NCBI GenBank assembly: GCA_017860675.1
Contig: JAGDMV010000001.1
Coordinates: forward strand, 1-29,260
DNA: 29,260 nt
Direction of reading: 5' to 3'
Source: Chloroflexota bacterium
GTDB lineage: Bacteria; Chloroflexota; Limnocylindria; Limnocylindrales; CSP1-4
Position 1 is the first letter of the stretch. Each line of letters opens with the position of its first letter. The notes under the pieces were generated by a model. That model was not told the origin of the DNA, made no database searches, and worked only from the letters and a program-made list of their open reading frames with translations. A program made the translations under genes and the position numbers. Of this stretch, positions 22,655 to 29,260 are shown piece by piece.

Positions 22655-23896
22655 TCAGCCAGGGAGCACCAGCACCTCGCGGGGGAACCGGGTCAGCCGC
22701 TCGACGCGGCCGGCGGCCCCGTCGAGCAGGACGAGGTCCTCGATCCGCACGCCGGTCCGGCCGCCGAGATACACCCCCGGCTCGACGGAGAACACCGTCG
22801 GGCTGGGGAGCGGCTCGTCGGGCGCCGACCGCGACAGCGCGGGTCGCTCGTGGGTCGCCAGCCCGATACCGTGCCCGAGGCCATGCCCGAAGTGCCGACC
22901 ATGGCCGGCGGCCTCGATCACCGCCCGGGCGGCGGCGTCGACTTCCCGCCCCGATGGCAGGGCCGCCGGGTCACGGGCGACGGCCGCGCCCGCCTCGAGC
23001 GCCCCGATCGCCGCCGCCTGGGCCCTCGCCACCAGCTCGTAGACCGCGAGGTCGCGTGCCGCCGGCTCGCCGACGAACAGGGTACGGGTCATGTCGCTCC
23101 GGTAGCCGGCGACCTGCGCCCCGAAGTCGAGCAGGACCACCTGTCCGGGCCGCAGCCGGCGCGGGCCGGGTGACCCGTGGGGCAGGGCCGCGTTCGACCC
23201 CGCCAGGCAGGCGATGTCGAAGGCGAGTGCCTCGGCCCCGCCCTCGCGCATCAGCATCTCGAGGCGCCAGGCGATTCTCGCCTCGGGGACGCCGGGTCGG
23301 ATCGCCGGCAGGAGGGCGGCCAGCGCCCGGTCCGCGACCGCCGCGGCCGCGACGATCCGTTCCACCTCGGCCGGCTCCTTCACCGCCCGGTCGGCGTCGA
23401 CCCAGGTCGGCGCCGGCACGAGCTCGACCCCAGGAGCGGCCGCCGCCAGCGCCTCCCAGAGCGCGCGCGGGATGTCGCCGGCCGGCACTGCCACGCGCCG
23501 GGCCCCCGCCGAGTCGAGCAGCGCGGGCCATGCTCCGGCAAGGTCGGCGGGAGCATCGAAGATGCGCGCCCCCGGGGCCTCCCGGCGAACCTGGAGCGTG
23601 TAGCGGCTGTCGGCCAGGACGATCACCTCGTCGGCGGTGACGAGGAACCGCCCGGAGTGGCCGGCGACCTTCTCCTCGCCCTCGCCGATGACCACGCCGG
23701 CGAGATAGCGGATCTCCTCGCGGCGCAGCCCGAAGTAGGCGTCGAGACCGGCCTCCGCGAGGCGTGCCCGCAGGCGGCCGAGCCGGGCGGGGCGGGCGGC
23801 CAGGTCAGCCTCTGCCCAGCCGCGCCGGCGACGCTCCGAGGGCGGGGCGGCGAAGTCGGCCGGGACCGGCAGCCCGCGCGTCGTCCGGCGGGTCAC
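22655..23896 (-). CDS. M24 family Xaa-Pro aminopeptidase/dipeptidase (YqhT/PepQ-like)
   Basis: Creatinase-N-like domain, then DFGA...GY.SDMTRT, HGLGHGIGL..HE.P, SVEPGVY and GVRIED metal-ligand motifs. GTG overlaps the mltG stop. Confidence 0.93.
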   Translation of the reverse strand: MTRRTTRGLPVPADFAAPPSERRRRGWAEADLAARPARLGRLRARLAEAGLDAYFGLRREEIRYLAGVVIGEGEEKVAGHSGRFLVTADEVIVLADSRYTLQVRREAPGARIFDAPADLAGAWPALLDSAGARRVAVPAGDIPRALWEALAAAAPGVELVPAPTWVDADRAVKEPAEVERIVAAAAVADRALAALLPAIRPGVPEARIAWRLEMLMREGGAEALAFDIACLAGSNAALPHGSPGPRRLRPGQVVLLDFGAQVAGYRSDMTRTLFVGEPAARDLAVYELVARAQAAAIGALEAGAAVARDPAALPSGREVDAAARAVIEAAGHGRHFGHGLGHGIGLATHERPALSRSAPDEPLPSPTVFSVEPGVYLGGRTGVRIEDLVLLDGAAGRVERLTRFPREVLVLPG

Positions 23897-25407
23897 TTGA
23901 TGTAGCCGTACTTCTTCAGCTTGGCCAGGTGCTGCTCGTAGGTGCGGGAGAAGTCGTGCTTGCCGTCCCCGTTCGGGATCGCCACGAAGTAGAGATAGCC
24001 CTTGGCCTGGTCGGGCTCGAGGGCGGCATCGATGGCGGCCACCGTCGGCGTCGCCAGCGGGCCCGGCGGCAGCCCGTGCTGCTGGTAGGTCTGGTAGCCG
24101 TCCAGCTCGGCCGGCAGCTGCACCTCGGCCATCGGGCTCGGGGGAATGTTCCAGAACGAGTACTGCGGCCAGGCGCCGATCGGCTGCTGCCCGAGCTCGA
24201 CCGCGTCGACACCGTAGATCACGGTCGGGTCAGCCTGGAGCAGCATCCCCTTGTCGAGCCGGTTCTGGTAGACGCCGGCGATCTTCGCCATCTCGCTCTC
24301 GAGTGCCGCCTCGCGCTGCACGATCGAGGCCAGCACGAGCACCTCCCGGAATGACAGGCCGCGCTCCTTCGCCACCTGCAGCCGCTCGGGACCGACCTCG
24401 GCGTACCAGCGATCGAGCATCTGGCGCACCAGCTCCTCGGCGGTGGCATCCGGCAGCAGCCGGTAGGAGCCGCCGGCGAGGTAGCCCTCGAGCGTGCCGC
24501 CCTCGGGCAGGTCGAGCCATGGGTAGTCGGCCAGCAGCGAGGTGGGTGGCTCGGTGACCAGGCCGTAGAAGTCGGCCGCGTCCAGCTGGAGCGAGGCGAT
24601 CTCGGGCGGACGGGACTGCAGCAGCGCGGTGACCTGCTCAAGCCGGATCCCCGGGCGGACCGGGAGCACGACGGACGGGTCCCATACCTCCTGCAGGGCG
24701 GTCACCACCTGGTCGGGGGTCATGTTCCGGCGCAGCAGATGCTGGCCCGCCTCGAACGAGCTGGTCGCGTCGCGCTCGACGGCGGCGAACAGGAAGGCGC
24801 GTGCGTCGCGGACCAGCCCTGCCTCCTCCAGGCGGGCAGCGATCCGGGAGGCGGACTCGCCCGACTCGACGGCGAAGGTGACCGACGCGGGGTCGTCGCT
24901 TGCCGGCTCGGTCAGCACCTCACCGAGGTCGTCGCGCACGATGTCGGCGACGAAGCCGATGCCCCAGGCCCCCGGGTTGTCGCCGGCGACCGCCAGGACG
25001 AGCCCATTGATGGCTGGCCGGGCTACCGTGAGCAGCCCGACGAGCACAATCGCGGCCGTGATCACGAGGAAGGCGAGGAAGCGGATCGAGCCGCTGATCC
25101 CGCCGCCCCGGCGGTCCTGGGGGCGGCCGGCAACCCGGGGCGGGGCAGCACGGCCGGTCTCGTCGGTCCAGCCGGGCGCCTGGCGAACCCCGGGATGGGC
25201 ACGCGCCGCCGGCGACTGCCCGACCGGCGACTGCCCGACCGGATGCGCCGCCGGCGACTGCCCGACCGGCGACTGCCCGACCGGATGCGCCGCCGGCTCG
25301 CCCGCGGGCTGGCGTCCGGCCTCCCCGGACCCCAACCGGTGCGCCATCGATCCCGACCCGGACGACGCCTGATGGTCGCGGGCCCCGCCACCTCCGCGGA
25401 CGGTCAC
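23893..25407 (-). CDS. mltG: Endolytic transglycosylase MltG (YceG family)
   Basis: Long cytoplasmic N-terminus, single TM, LASIVQRE (catalytic Glu), IAGVYQNRL, LQADPTVIY, Y...GLPPGP, YLYFV and H.FS.TY..H motifs. Confidence 0.94.
   Translation of the reverse strand: MTVRGGGGARDHQASSGSGSMAHRLGSGEAGRQPAGEPAAHPVGQSPVGQSPAAHPVGQSPVGQSPAARAHPGVRQAPGWTDETGRAAPPRVAGRPQDRRGGGISGSIRFLAFLVITAAIVLVGLLTVARPAINGLVLAVAGDNPGAWGIGFVADIVRDDLGEVLTEPASDDPASVTFAVESGESASRIAARLEEAGLVRDARAFLFAAVERDATSSFEAGQHLLRRNMTPDQVVTALQEVWDPSVVLPVRPGIRLEQVTALLQSRPPEIASLQLDAADFYGLVTEPPTSLLADYPWLDLPEGGTLEGYLAGGSYRLLPDATAEELVRQMLDRWYAEVGPERLQVAKERGLSFREVLVLASIVQREAALESEMAKIAGVYQNRLDKGMLLQADPTVIYGVDAVELGQQPIGAWPQYSFWNIPPSPMAEVQLPAELDGYQTYQQHGLPPGPLATPTVAAIDAALEPDQAKGYLYFVAIPNGDGKHDFSRTYEQHLAKLKKYGYIK
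25203..25297. repeat. Perfect nested tandem repeat (42-bp unit x ~2.3, each containing 2 x 15 bp) in the mltG N-terminus
   Basis: GCGCCGCCGGCGACTGCCCGACCGGCGACTGCCCGACCGGAT at 25203-25244 and 25245-25286, plus 11 nt of a third copy. Encodes (PAAHPVGQSPVGQS)2. Confidence 0.95.
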
Positions 25408-25883
25408 GGCACCGTCCCCGGGGAGCCGGCGGCCGTCCGCCGGCGCGCCTCGAGCTCGTCCTCGAGGATGACGGCCGCGGAGGCCGCGTCGATCCGGGCC
25501 CGGTGCCTGGCCCGGCGCGTCGGGCCAGGCGGCCCGCCGGCGCTGCCGCGCCGGGCACGTCCCGCCCGGGCGGCAGCCACCTCGCTCGTGAGGCGCTCGT
25601 CACGGAGCGTCACCGGCAGGCCGGACCGCGCCCCGATGTCGATCGCCCAGGTCCGCGCCGCGGCGGCGGCCGGCCCCTCGGCGCCGCTCATGTCCAGCGG
25701 CAGGCCGACGACCAGCTCGGTGGCGCCGTTGGCTGCCGCAATCGCCGCGATCCGGTCGGCATCCTCCGCGGTCGACCGCGAGCGGGTGAGCGTCCCGAGA
25801 GGTACGGCCCTGAGGTCGTCCGCCTCGGCCAGGGCCAGCCCGATCCGCCGGGTCCCTGGGTCGATGCCCAGCAGCCTGCTCAC
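25404..25883 (-). CDS. ruvX: Holliday junction resolvase-like protein RuvX/YqgF
   Basis: LLGIDPGTRRIGLA, VVGLPL.M.G, DERLTS and IDAASA.VILE motifs. GTG at 25883 overlaps the upstream stop (GTGA). Confidence 0.93.
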   Translation of the reverse strand: MSRLLGIDPGTRRIGLALAEADDLRAVPLGTLTRSRSTAEDADRIAAIAAANGATELVVGLPLDMSGAEGPAAAAARTWAIDIGARSGLPVTLRDERLTSEVAAARAGRARRGSAGGPPGPTRRARHRARIDAASAAVILEDELEARRRTAAGSPGTVP

Positions 25884-27799
25884 GGCGCGGGCGTCTCGCC
25901 CGGGAGGGGCGACGGGCCCGGGGTGGCCGACGGCTTCGGAGTGGATGGCGCGGCGGTCGCGTCGGGGCTTGGCGACGCACCCGGCTCGCCATCGGTCGTC
26001 GGCGCGCCAAGCACCTCGACCGTGAGCCGGGCATCGATCGAGGTGATCGTCGGGATCCACTCCGGCCAGACGGTCAGCTCGACGGTCCCGTACGGGGCCA
26101 GCATCTCCGTCGCCTCGGCCGGGGTCTTGCCGGCGATCAGCGCGCGGATCTCGTCCTCGTCCACGATCCGCACCGCGGTGGCGCTGCCGGTGGCCGGCAC
26201 GACCACCAGCTCGCCCTCTACGACGGGGTCCCCGACCTCGATCTCCACGCTGCCCGGGTCGAGCCGATAGTCGGCCGGGACGCTCGCGCCCAGGGTCGCC
26301 GCGGCGACCGAGCGCGCATCGCCGGGATCGACGGCGAGCACGGTCCCGGTGGCAGCCAGCCCGAGCTTGAACTCCGCCACCTCCGTCCCGACCACGGTCT
26401 CCGGGTCCGGCACGGGGGTGGCCTCCCCGCGCTGCGCCGTGCCGGGCACCACGACCGTCCCCGGCGGGATGCCGGGGGGTGCCTCGGCAACGGCGGCCAG
26501 CTGTTCGTCCAGCATGCCCTCGAGCGTGACCAGGGCCGCGTCGACGTCGGCCTGGGTCACCTTGGGGAACTCCTCGCGGCTGCCGCCGCTCGTCGCCCGC
26601 GGGTTCGTGACCTTGATCACGACCGGGTTATAGGCGCCCGGGATGCGGGAGATCGCGCCGGCGCCCACGTTGCCCTCGGGTCCGGCCTTGGAGGCGACGA
26701 CGTCGGCGTTCCGCCGCGAGCACTCGACGCCGATGTTGGGCGGCGTGCCCGTCTGGATGGCCACGGGCAGGAAGACCGGTTCGGTGGTCAGGAAGCCGAC
26801 GCCGCCGGACGTTCGCACGAGCGTGCCGCGCGGGATCGTGTAGGCGGCCGTCTGGTCGCAGTTGAGCCAGCGGACGGTGCCGGAGGCCTTCTGCTCCTCG
26901 ACCCGCTTGCCGGTGGCGTTGAACGTCCCTTCCACCGCCACCGGGAACTCCACCGTTGTGCCCGGGATCGTGCCGGCCGCCGGGTCGGGCTCGCTGGCCC
27001 CCGGGTCGACGCTGATCGTCAGGTCGACCGGGCCGATCGATTTCGTCGCCGGGGTCACCGTCACGGTGGCCGTGGGCAGGAAGACGTACCCGACGACCCC
27101 GCCGACGACCGCCGCCAGCAGCAGCACGCCGACGCCGACGAAAAGCACGACCCGGCGCCGGGAGCGGCCTGGACGGCGGGGCGGTGCGGCGGCCGCCAGG
27201 CCGGTCGACGGGCCGACCGGCCGCAACGGCTCGGTGGCCGGGGGCGTCATGCTCGTCCCGGGATCACCCGGGCCCGAACCCGGCCCGGACGGGGCACGCC
27301 GCGCCTGGTCGCGGGGCCCCGGCGGCGCCGCTCCGACGGCTCCGGCCGCCGTTTCGACCGCACCCCCGACAGACCCGGCTGCCGCTGCCGCACCAGCCCC
27401 GCGGCCCGTCGGGCCTGCCCCGCCGGCCTCACCGAGGGGCTCCCCTGCGCCGGCCATGCCTGCTGCAACGCCGGCTGCCGCCGCAGTCGCCGCCCCGCCG
27501 TCCGCTGCCGGCGCACCAGGCCGCTGGGCGGTGAGCGCGTCCTCGTACTCCATGACCGAGCCGAAGACGGGCAGGCCGGCCGAGGCGGCGAGAGCCCTGG
27601 CCGACGCTTCCGGGGCCACGATCGCCAGCCGGCGGCTGCGTGCCTGGGCCTCGCGAGCGAGCAGCCGGAAGTTGATCCGCGACGTCGCGATCCGCGAGCC
27701 GGCCGGGAGCACGAGCGCGATCCGCGTTTCCTGGGCCTCGCGGATTCGCGCTGCCGCCGAGGTGATCTCGTCATCGATGTCGAGGTAGAAGGTCGTCAT
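25880..27799 (-). CDS. Single-pass membrane protein with extracytoplasmic baseplate J/gp47-like domain
   Basis: Folded N-terminal domain (aa ~1-86), Ala/Gly/Pro linker, RRRR followed by a TM (aa ~217-241), then ASGTV.W.N..TIPRGT.V.T..G..F.T...V.A...G..GNV.AGAI...VTNP.A.SGG, which resembles Baseplate_J. Recognised by eye. Confidence 0.75.
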   Translation of the reverse strand: MTTFYLDIDDEITSAAARIREAQETRIALVLPAGSRIATSRINFRLLAREAQARSRRLAIVAPEASARALAASAGLPVFGSVMEYEDALTAQRPGAPAADGGAATAAAAGVAAGMAGAGEPLGEAGGAGPTGRGAGAAAAAGSVGGAVETAAGAVGAAPPGPRDQARRAPSGPGSGPGDPGTSMTPPATEPLRPVGPSTGLAAAAPPRRPGRSRRRVVLFVGVGVLLLAAVVGGVVGYVFLPTATVTVTPATKSIGPVDLTISVDPGASEPDPAAGTIPGTTVEFPVAVEGTFNATGKRVEEQKASGTVRWLNCDQTAAYTIPRGTLVRTSGGVGFLTTEPVFLPVAIQTGTPPNIGVECSRRNADVVASKAGPEGNVGAGAISRIPGAYNPVVIKVTNPRATSGGSREEFPKVTQADVDAALVTLEGMLDEQLAAVAEAPPGIPPGTVVVPGTAQRGEATPVPDPETVVGTEVAEFKLGLAATGTVLAVDPGDARSVAAATLGASVPADYRLDPGSVEIEVGDPVVEGELVVVPATGSATAVRIVDEDEIRALIAGKTPAEATEMLAPYGTVELTVWPEWIPTITSIDARLTVEVLGAPTTDGEPGASPSPDATAAPSTPKPSATPGPSPLPGETPAP

Positions 27800-27803
27800 C
27801 GCC

Positions 27804-29066
27804 CTAGATCTTCATCGCTCGGAGCACCCGCCGCAGGGCGGCGTCGAGCGGGTCCTGCTCCGCCTGCAGCTCGATCGCCTGGTAGGCCAGGCCGAGCGGG
27901 GTGACGTCCTGCTGGTCGACCAGCAGGTCGGTGGCGTCGGCGATCGTCTCGATCATCCCGGGCGACATGACCGTGACCTCCGGCGGCCGACTGAACGGCA
28001 GGTGACGCCAGAACCCCTCCTGGCGGAGCGCGCCGGCCATCTCGGGCAGCCGCGAGCCGCCGCCACAGAGGTAGATCCGGCCGGGCAGCAGCTCGCCGGC
28101 AGCCAGCTCGTCGAGGACGAGCTCCATCCCGGCGGCCCACACCGCCACGTCGTCGGCCACGATCGCTGCGATCTCGTCCCGACGCTCGACGTCCATCCCC
28201 CGGGCGTAGTCGATCTTGAGTGCCTCGGCCCGGGGGAACGGCAGCTCCAGCCGGTCGGCCAGCGACTTGGTGAAGGCTCGACCGGCCAGGGCGAACATCC
28301 TCGTCCCCTCGATCCCGCCCGAGCGGACGAGGGCAACGTCGGTGGTACCCCCGCCGACGTCGACGAAGAGCGCACCGGCCTGCTGGACCTGCTCCGAGCC
28401 AAGGACCCGGGCGACCGCGTACGGCTCGGCCACCACCTCGAGCAGGTCCAGGTCCAGCTGGGCGGCGACCGACTCGAGCGCCCCGAGGTGGACGAGCGGG
28501 GCGAAGGCGTTGAAGATGCCGATCGAGACGTGGCGGCCCTGGAAGCCCACCGGGTTGGTGACCGGGTAGCCGTCGATGCTGGCCCCGGTGACGGCCGCGT
28601 GGACCAGGCGGACGTCCACGTTCGGGAGACCCGTCTCCCAGGTGATCGCTCGCTCGGCCTCGACGAGGGCATCGTGCTGCACGCTGTCGATCAGCTTCTG
28701 GAGCTCGGCGTCGCTGATGGGCAGGTCCGGCTTCTTGCGCTCCTGGGAGCGGCTGATGGTGAAGCCCTTCACCAGCTCGCCGGCGATCCCGATCACCACC
28801 TGGCCGGGGCGGAAGCCGGCCATCTCCTCGGCCTCCTGGAGGGCGACCGCGCAGTTGTCCACCACCGCGCCGATGTCGGCCACCATGCCCGACTGCATGT
28901 GGGCCAGCCCCTGGCGCTTGCGCCCGACGCCGAGCACCGTGCCGTGGCCGGTTTCGTCGATCTCGAACACCAGCGCCTTGGCGAACTCGGTCCCAACGTC
29001 GAGCGCGGTGCAGGCGGCCAGCCCGTCGCTGCGCTCTCCTTTCCACAGGCGCCGGAGGAAGCTCAT
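27804..29066 (-). CDS. FtsA-family actin-fold ATPase (FtsA paralogue, not next to ftsZ)
   Basis: Phosphate-1 ALDVGTE, SHS2/1C motif IDG....NPVGFQG, connect-1 EPYA, phosphate-2 VDVGGGTTDVA, AEALK, adenosine LCGGGSRL, connect-2 TPLGLA. ATG overlaps the alaS stop (ATGA). Confidence 0.88.
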   Translation of the reverse strand: MSFLRRLWKGERSDGLAACTALDVGTEFAKALVFEIDETGHGTVLGVGRKRQGLAHMQSGMVADIGAVVDNCAVALQEAEEMAGFRPGQVVIGIAGELVKGFTISRSQERKKPDLPISDAELQKLIDSVQHDALVEAERAITWETGLPNVDVRLVHAAVTGASIDGYPVTNPVGFQGRHVSIGIFNAFAPLVHLGALESVAAQLDLDLLEVVAEPYAVARVLGSEQVQQAGALFVDVGGGTTDVALVRSGGIEGTRMFALAGRAFTKSLADRLELPFPRAEALKIDYARGMDVERRDEIAAIVADDVAVWAAGMELVLDELAAGELLPGRIYLCGGGSRLPEMAGALRQEGFWRHLPFSRPPEVTVMSPGMIETIADATDLLVDQQDVTPLGLAYQAIELQAEQDPLDAALRRVLRAMKI

Positions 29067-29260
29067 CGACGCTTCTCGCCGCCGCCGGCCGGGGCGACGT
29101 GAGTCCCGTCGATGCGCGCGGCCAGCGCGGCCCGGACCGAGGCCAGCGCGGCCGGGATCCCGTCGCGCCGCGTGCCCCTGCCCTGGGCCATCTCCGGTCG
29201 CCCGCCCCCCTTCCCGTCGAGGTGGGCGACCGCGTCCCGCACCAGCATGCCGGCGGCGAT
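29063..29260 (-). CDS. alaS: Alanine--tRNA ligase, 3' end (C-terminal DHHA1 domain; gene runs off the window)
   Basis: GKGGGRPEMAQG.G...AL..V is the AlaRS C-terminal motif. The frame is open to the window edge, and the position upstream of ruvX-mltG fits conserved synteny. Confidence 0.85.
   Translation of the reverse strand: MAAGMLVRDAVAHLDGKGGGRPEMAQGRGTRRDGIPAALASVRAALAARIDGTHVAPAGGGEKRR

Follow-up and report, generated by a model that had tools for sequence, protein, structure and literature searches.

The window analysed here, a stretch of 29,260 nucleotides from a Chloroflexota bacterium of the order Limnocylindrales (assembly GCA_017860675.1, contig JAGDMV010000001.1, positions 1 to 29,260), includes a run of minus-strand genes in the order alaS (3' end), a gene for an FtsA-like actin-fold ATPase (protein P0001), a gene for a bitopic membrane protein (P0002, hereafter the partner), ruvX, mltG and an M24 peptidase gene. 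The FtsA-like gene lies between alaS and the partner-ruvX-mltG group, outside the cluster of genes for division and the cell wall (dcw). A first-pass annotation, made from the sequence, had described its product as an FtsA paralogue that lacks the FtsZ-binding determinants of subdomain 2B. Our analysis upholds the core of that description: at the level of sequence and of the predicted structure, the canonical FtsZ docking site does not exist in P0001.

The segment of 2B under study (residues 280-310) translates as AEALKIDYARGMDVERRDEIAAIVADDVAVW. Between AEALK and IAAIV of P0001 there are 14 residues, compared with 34 between AEAIK (254-258) and LAEVIE (293-) of E. coli FtsA; this spacing, reported in the first-pass annotation, is a direct count, and hhalign returns the same register. 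A three-way MAFFT alignment of P0001, E. coli FtsA and a canonical FtsA of the same genus places a gap of ~19 residues after AEALK. We then aligned globally, with hhalign, a family profile of 85 full-length members (28-86% identical to P0001) and a canonical profile of 61 FtsAs (from Pseudomonadota, Bacteroidota, Chloroflexota, Nitrospirota, Bacillota and others, including E. coli). The family carries a deletion of 4 + 16 residues that removes E. coli residues ~264-289, including R286: YARG----MDV, 16 gaps and ERRDEI stand opposite E. coli 260-293, and the stretch ESVEVPSVGGRPPRSL with R286 is missing. Counted from the lysine of the AE.LK motif as far as the long 2B helix, the segment spans 37 residues in 53/61 canonical FtsAs (range 32-45), and 18 residues in 67/85 members of the paralogue family (12-22 in 83/85). 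An AlphaFold2 model built with the 85-row alignment (pLDDT 93.9, pTM 0.92) has a strand-free 2B made up of helices 262-273, 277-288 and 296-322, the last two joined by a seven-residue loop, and DSSP assigns no strand between them. Thus the profile deletion, the segment lengths and the model, which holds no intact 2B hairpin, agree with the annotation that the R286 hairpin is missing. By sequence and model, remodelling has left 2B as a compact module of PilM size that is helical throughout.

The positions that contact FtsZ are changed as well, among them the Arg (R300) and Glu (E303) that in canonical FtsA form salt bridges with the FtsZ C-terminal peptide. The hhalign register pairs D306 of P0001 with E. 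coli R300, V309 with E303, W310 with L304 and S268 with D242, which reproduces the Asp at the R300 position and the Val at the E303 position seen on first reading. Arg fills the R300 column in 61/61 canonical FtsAs; in the 85 members of the paralogue family the column holds Asp (45), Glu (6) or Lys (1), and Arg in none. At E303, Glu is found in 59/61 canonical sequences, and Val, Leu or Ile in 68/85 paralogues (acidic residues 0/85). The D242 column is Asp in 61/61 canonical FtsAs and Arg (36), Ser (16), Ala (11) or Lys (5) among the 85 paralogues, while the L304 column, canonically Ile (27), Leu (19) or Thr (12; n = 61), is Trp in 78/85, a residue peculiar to the family that lies one helical turn on. 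The short 2B and these substitutions are a trait of the whole family, neither chance nor the oddity of a single sequence.

The hairpin and the substitutions carry different weight. E. coli FtsA without S12-S13, studied by Rico et al. in 2004, reportedly still gets to Z rings and still interacts with FtsZ. A secondary source calls S12-S13 essential for the FtsZ interaction (PMC4281207), and because the two accounts conflict, we give the loss of the hairpin little weight for FtsZ binding. R286 is located at FtsA subunit interfaces, where the longitudinal contact is IIA-IIB (PMC7613929), so that loss of the hairpin concerns self-assembly as much as FtsZ binding. The first-pass claim must be narrowed accordingly: the docking features of 2B are absent family-wide, but R286 belongs to the subunit interface and makes no FtsZ contact. 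A stronger argument against canonical docking comes from the changes at R300, E303 and D242, of which two reverse the charge, since the FtsZ tail is bound by three salt bridges, in which an Asp and an Arg, both conserved, and the carboxylate of the C-terminus take part (PMC3418248, citing Szwedziak 2012), and since the E. coli tail site consists of FtsA 2B residues 234-245 and 294-304, in agreement with the Pichoff-Lutkenhaus genetic screen (PMC10769210).

Overall, P0001 is FtsA-like with a PilM-sized 2B. It matches Pfam FtsA (PF14450) at 53.8 bits, and its best family is TIGR01174, with 101 bits against a cut-off of 175.85 and with profile positions 3-257 only aligned; against that model, genuine FtsAs from the genus reach 388-405 bits, and a split copy in genome G018 scores 306. 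Superposition with VIA-align ranks V. maritimus FtsA first (7q6f; Z 40.7, 353 residues, root-mean-square deviation 2.4), followed by E. coli FtsA (7q6d; Z 38.5, 354 residues), the T. maritima FtsA:FtsZ complex (4a2a; Z 34.8, 351/377 residues), PilM (2ych; Z 31.8, 327/336 residues) and MreB (Z ~24, 250-263 residues). Assignment to MreB or Mbl was rejected, given this low Z, a PF06723 match (28.2 bits) that covers residues 196-269 only and a TIGR00904 score of 22.4 against 365.75 bits; the earlier view of the protein as FtsA-like rather than MreB-like therefore holds. We conclude that, among actin-fold ATPases of the FtsA/PilM class, P0001 belongs to a branch that is old and stands apart.

The nucleotide-binding motifs are retained throughout the family: D23, G25, G238 and G335 are present in all 85 members, D236 in 84 and T242 in 82, and G336 falls within the range of 82-85. 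The IDG...NPVG..G motif of the 1C subdomain (164-177), which the first-pass annotation had also picked out, aligns with E. coli IDYQEGIKNPVGLSG. Residues G93, G96, R110, E121 and D165 of the 1C region are invariant in the family, and the 1C helix is 14 residues longer than in canonical FtsA (MAFFT). The hydrophobic moment of the C-terminal helix is 0.73, compared with 0.69 for the C-terminus of E. coli FtsA, and 0/425 internal control windows reach 0.73. This amphipathic helix probably puts P0001 on the inner face of the membrane.

Table. Features of the FtsA-like locus, in coordinates of the window
Feature	Position	Strand	Basis
FtsA-like actin-fold ATPase gene (P0001, 420 aa)	27804..29066	-	open reading frame (ORF); Pfam, TIGR, AlphaFold2 model, VIA-align
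2B segment under study, P0001 residues 280-310 (AEALK ... VW)	28137..28229	-	translation; alignment to E. coli 254-304, 20 residues deleted
7-residue loop (residues 289-295) replacing the canonical S12-S13 beta-hairpin	28182..28202	-	hhalign gaps; DSSP on model
Codons for D306 (= E. coli R300), V309 (= E. coli E303) and W310 (family-specific Trp)	28137..28151	-	column counts
1C (SHS2-type) subdomain, ~residues 97-178, bearing IDG..NPVG..G	28533..28778	-	alignments and model
Phosphate-2 ATP motif DVGGGTT, residues 236-242	28341..28361	-	family column counts
Phosphate-1 motif, D23-T26	28989-29000	-	family column counts
Adenosine motif GGG, residues 335-337	28056-28064	-	family column counts
C-terminal amphipathic helix, residues 406-419, candidate membrane-targeting sequence	27810..27851	-	model; hydrophobic moment
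Partner gene, 639-aa single-pass membrane protein (P0002)	25880..27799	-	Pfam Baseplate_J, AlphaFold2 model
Partner linker, residues 96-213	27161-27514	-	
Partner ectodomain barrel, residues 301-408	26576-26899	-	
alaS 3' end (DHHA1 domain), truncated at the contig end; its stop and the start of the FtsA-like gene overlap	29063..29260	-	ORF list, domain match
ruvX (yqgF); listed ORF overlaps the partner-gene end, RuvX domain from residue 62	25404..26060	-	Pfam RuvX, 95.5 bits
mltG (YceG family)	23893..25407	-	Pfam YceG, 226.5 bits
M24 peptidase gene, after mltG	22655-23896	-	Peptidase_M24, 187.6 bits

Neither ftsZ nor a full-scoring ftsA was found in the source metagenome-assembled genome, which is 64.5% complete. 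A radC-mreB-mreC locus is present in it (L002:904-1956, contig C211). Canonical FtsA scores above cut-off in 18/18 genomes of the same genus (85-95% complete) and is full length in 17/18; the remaining copy, in G018, is split at about profile position 266 and is still above cut-off. All 18 also hold the paralogue (~100 bits), MreB and one further actin-fold match. In one of them (G003) we identified an ftsQ-ftsA-ftsZ cluster in which FtsA keeps the Arg and Glu (EARMRE) and FtsZ terminates in DDLEIPSFLRRSK, a standard tail. The gene is thus a paralogue, as first described. Judged from these relatives, the organism would possess FtsA along with MreB and the paralogue, and the Z-ring tether of the cell would be the separate canonical FtsA of ftsQ-ftsA-ftsZ.

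The same picture emerges from an even sample of 61 Chloroflexota genomes (the unpublished genome G068 is counted only among those without the paralogue). The paralogue profile gives full-length matches of 288-542 bits in 17 of them, and canonical FtsAs score 76-138 bits against it. With the incomplete source genome set aside, canonical FtsA is present in 16/16 paralogue carriers, the copy in G088 being cut by a contig end. The paralogue gene never adjoins ftsZ or ftsQ in the loci examined. Genomes of a small-genome sister family in the same order (G019-G030, 1.0-1.4 Mb) encode canonical FtsA and MreB, and no paralogue match was found in these 12 genomes (87-93% complete); apparently, the module was lost or never gained in this streamlined lineage.

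Relatives are widely distributed. In a library of 50%-identity representatives, 346 relatives of P0001 were recovered at E <= 1e-30, with full-length matches down to ~29% identity. Related loci, found with a 12-row subset of the 85-row alignment, come from Limnocylindria, other Chloroflexota, many Saccharibacteria, Peribacteria, Dojkabacteria, Dormibacterota and the cultivated Natroniella sp. ANB-PHB2 (Bacillota); another, L027, is assigned to Bdellovibrionales by its record label only. A quick IQ-TREE phylogeny (LG+C20) was computed from 31 paralogues, 22 canonical FtsAs and MreB, with PilM left out. The paralogues form their own clade, split from the canonical FtsAs by branches with SH-aLRT 99 and 98, and the Limnocylindria canonical FtsA groups among other Chloroflexota FtsAs. 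Thus, the duplication is old and not lineage-specific. Placement of the family relative to PilM is addressed by profile and structure scores only. In the literature we found no description of an FtsA-like/Baseplate_J-like family.

Some relatives differ in architecture. P0148 (808 aa) and P0137 (969 aa) are 40-43% identical over the full length and have long N-terminal extensions with one domain each, a TIR domain (PF13676, E 7.5e-20) and a caspase-like Peptidase_C14 domain (E 4.6e-4; 20.4 bits, gathering cut-off 21.4). This hints that some lineages may couple the ATPase to effectors of conflict or cell-death type. In P0199 and P0262 the FtsA-like protein and the partner look naturally fused, but the frame is lost between the two parts; we treat them as frameshift-merged calls and do not use them as evidence of interaction. 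The joins with neighbouring genes in these two and in P0122 and P0222 probably reflect frameshifts or run-through in gene calling, on contigs that are very rich in GC.

The partner gene begins 4 nt downstream of the FtsA-like gene, and its product matches Pfam Baseplate_J (E 1.6e-5). The AlphaFold2 model comprises a confident alpha/beta N-domain (1-92), a transmembrane helix (215-239) and a confident ectodomain (243-600). Residues 1-95 give middling Z of 7.0-7.8 to STAS and anti-sigma-antagonist domains. The barrel of the ectodomain superposes on a cyanophage baseplate (8kea, Z 14.3) and the Mu baseplate (9ki1, Z 12.2), and across phage and injection-system baseplate proteins Z ranges from 9.6 to 14.3, with Foldseek E down to 8e-9. 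The barrel also matches the N-terminal barrel of Streptomyces GlxA (4unm, Z 13.4), and PF21110 occurs in homologues. GlxA is a membrane-anchored oxidase with a part in glycan deposition at hyphal tips. The STAS-like domain is joined to the transmembrane helix by a cytoplasmic, Ala/Gly/Pro-rich linker of ~120 residues that is predicted to be disordered; linker length varies widely among homologues, and partner lengths range from 506 to 768 aa.

In loci of all the phyla listed above, a partner homologue directly follows the FtsA-like gene, and ruvX and mltG come next. An N-terminal motif of the partner, YLDxDDEITS, is strongly conserved across phyla. The partner changes much faster than the ATPase (46-52% and 80-86% identity within the lineage, respectively). 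The complete genome of Natroniella sp. ANB-PHB2 (NZ_CP175562.1, L044:5971-8794) encodes an FtsA-like protein of 430 aa, a partner of 506 aa, RuvX, two small ORFs and MltG, and the gene upstream is not alaS. The partner match there has an hhalign probability of 99.9%.

Published transposon sequencing (Tn-seq) of Southlakia epibionticum covers a locus in the order alaS-0656-0655-ruvX-mltG (Wang et al. 2023, PMC10633639 Table S1). SEML1_0656, annotated as 'pilus assembly protein PilM' (KEGG Orthology K03590), is called nonessential (NE), NE and growth defect (GD) at P0, P1 and P2, with 47, 65 and 49 insertions at T0, T1 and T2. The calls for SEML1_0655 (baseplate J/gp47) are NE, essential (ES) and ES, with 25, 7 and 2 insertions. 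Both ftsA (SEML1_0174; 2, 0 and 0 insertions) and ftsZ (SEML1_0175; 1, 0 and 0) are called GD, ES and ES. SEML1_0656 and SEML1_0655 are both marked as core and Patescibacteria-enriched, the pair being listed and not discussed; structure classification gives SEML1_0655 a SpoIIAA-like N-domain and baseplate gp6-like domains, and identifies a separate PilM, SEML1_0104, as 99.6% probable (PMC10633639). These data fit a role outside the essential Z-ring tether, and the pair is not dispensable for fitness.

With moderate confidence, we read P0001 as an ATPase of the FtsA/PilM class that is without the FtsZ dock and has been re-targeted to a bitopic partner of its own, with the nucleotide core, the 1C subdomain and the C-terminal helix kept. 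Its job probably differs from that of FtsA and is carried out at the cell envelope. The divisome-independence proposed in the first-pass annotation is suggested by the intact FtsA alongside, the fixed membrane partner, the operon outside dcw and the Southlakia Tn-seq. We predict that the paralogue most likely acts with the membrane protein encoded next to it, as in PilM-PilN or FtsA-FtsN. Its predicted task is to bind the STAS-like domain of the partner, or to organise it, from the cytoplasmic side and in an ATP-dependent manner, which would govern where the baseplate-wedge-like ectodomain sits in the envelope or which state it takes. Conserved linkage with ruvX and mltG hints at a connection with peptidoglycan metabolism. 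A broader and clearly more speculative proposal, which we hold to be possible but doubtful, is a trans-envelope system in which a membrane-bound actin-like ATPase, maybe polymerising via a new 2B interface, uses a STAS-like adaptor to position or switch a surface ectodomain derived from a phage baseplate. This would be a third actin-based envelope machine beside the divisome (FtsA) and the elongasome (MreB), common to Chloroflexota, Dormibacterota and the Candidate Phyla Radiation, and it might organise wall remodelling or cell-cell attachment.

Several points weigh against the reading of a re-targeted ATPase. The case concerning FtsZ argues from known determinants being absent, and a different surface could serve to bind FtsZ or FtsA. 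If E. coli FtsA without S12-S13 localises to Z rings, as it is said to do, the loss of the hairpin alone proves little. The residue register derives from a profile alignment and the structure is a prediction; membrane binding is deduced from features of the sequence, and the interaction with the partner from gene order together with such features. SEML1_0656 and SEML1_0655 are taken as orthologues because of their synteny, length and annotation, and by way of sequences from other Saccharibacteria. Their Tn-seq calls may include polar effects on ruvX, and the GD and ES calls at later passages represent a fitness cost, compatible with a role in growth or division.

The main rival would make P0001 a divisome or septal-wall component that reaches the division site without the 2B site, through co-assembly with canonical FtsA via 1C and 2A or through FtsZ bound elsewhere, and that links the ring to the ectodomain partner and to MltG-dependent peptidoglycan processing. 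It can draw on a fold nearest to FtsA, with a 1C of the type through which FtsA makes lateral contacts and engages late divisome proteins (PMC7613929), on an operon with mltG that is conserved across phyla, and on the growth defect that develops over passages when the Southlakia gene is disrupted. However, the equivalents of R300, E303 and D242 are all changed, with two charge reversals, and the 2B hairpin of the longitudinal IIA-IIB interface is missing. In addition, no ftsZ or ftsQ adjacency occurs in the loci examined, and the Southlakia homologue tolerates insertions while ftsA and ftsZ tolerate almost none. We therefore regard a divisome role as unlikely.

A divergent PilM, which in the cytoplasm would act as the actin-like platform for a type IV pilus or for a competence machine, is very improbable. 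The annotation of the Southlakia homologue points that way, as do the co-linearity of family profile positions 212-349 with P. aeruginosa PilM 180-313 (the 2A/2B half), the 93 bits scored by M. xanthus PilM, the superposition on 2ych (Z 31.8, 327/336 residues) and the fact that PilM likewise pairs with a bitopic protein. Yet P0001 falls below the cut-offs of the PilM families (TIGR01175, 24.1 vs 133 bits; PF11104, 13.4 vs 27), and FtsA structures and profiles score higher. There is no pilN, pilO or pilQ among its neighbours, its partner is Baseplate_J-like and not PilN-like, and Southlakia has a separate PilM (SEML1_0104). No PilM above cut-off was found in the 61 sampled Chloroflexota genomes, 17 of which carry the paralogue. 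We reject, as having next to no likelihood, the idea that the pair was left behind by a prophage or a contractile injection system and has no cellular role. The match of the ectodomain barrel to baseplate proteins of phages and injection systems (Z 9.6-14.3) is what speaks for it, but the operon holds no sheath, tube, spike or gp25 genes, its chromosomal position is constant in several phyla, identity of the FtsA-like protein within the lineage is 80-86%, and the partner has a transmembrane helix and a cytoplasmic domain, unlike baseplate subunits.

The known couplings of an actin-like ATPase to membrane-spanning envelope machinery are FtsA, MreB and PilM, and the paralogue represents a fourth, well-conserved lineage. 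Its members are 80-86% identical over an entire class. About one quarter of the sampled Chloroflexota carry it, and so do many Saccharibacteria, further candidate phyla, Dormibacterota and a single cultivated member of the Bacillota. If re-targeted as we propose, it would be a concrete case in which a cytoskeletal tether kept its ATPase core and 1C, lost the FtsZ dock and gained an unusual, fixed partner. Genetically tractable Southlakia epibionticum and cultivated Natroniella sp. ANB-PHB2 provide experimental entry points. Annotation is affected too: at present the names given to such genes are 'cell division protein FtsA', 'rod shape-determining protein' and 'PilM', and the tests run here support none of the three.

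Among known systems, the Southlakia pair resembles the one described here in gene order, in sizes of 427 aa and 556 aa, and in the published domains of SEML1_0655, which match the model of the partner; it comes from a different phylum (Saccharibacteria), and the saccharibacterial homologues compared with P0001 are 41-46% identical. MreB with RodZ or MreC is likewise a membrane-associated actin-fold ATPase coupled to bitopic envelope proteins, but MreB has 1B where P0001 has 1C. FtsA (TIGR01174, PF14450; 7Q6F, 7Q6D, 4A2A) shares the four-subdomain fold with 1C in place of actin 1B, the ATP motifs, the AE.LK motif, the C-terminal amphipathic helix and work beside bitopic membrane proteins. Unlike FtsA, P0001 scores below the family cut-off, has no S12-S13 hairpin, is changed at R300, E303 and D242, has a longer 1C helix, is encoded away from dcw, is accompanied by a true FtsA and falls in its own clade. 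PilM-PilN (TIGR01175, PF11104; 2YCH, 5EOU) offers an actin-like ATPase with 1C and a compact 2B of equal length, encoded beside a single-pass membrane protein whose cytoplasmic N-terminus PilM binds in its 1A-1C cleft, and this may serve as a working analogy. The differences are that P0001 scores far under the PilM cut-offs and has no pilus genes nearby, and that PilN consists of a short cytoplasmic peptide and a ferredoxin-like periplasmic domain, whereas the partner of P0001 has a folded STAS-like domain, connected through a long disordered linker with an ectodomain of baseplate-like build.

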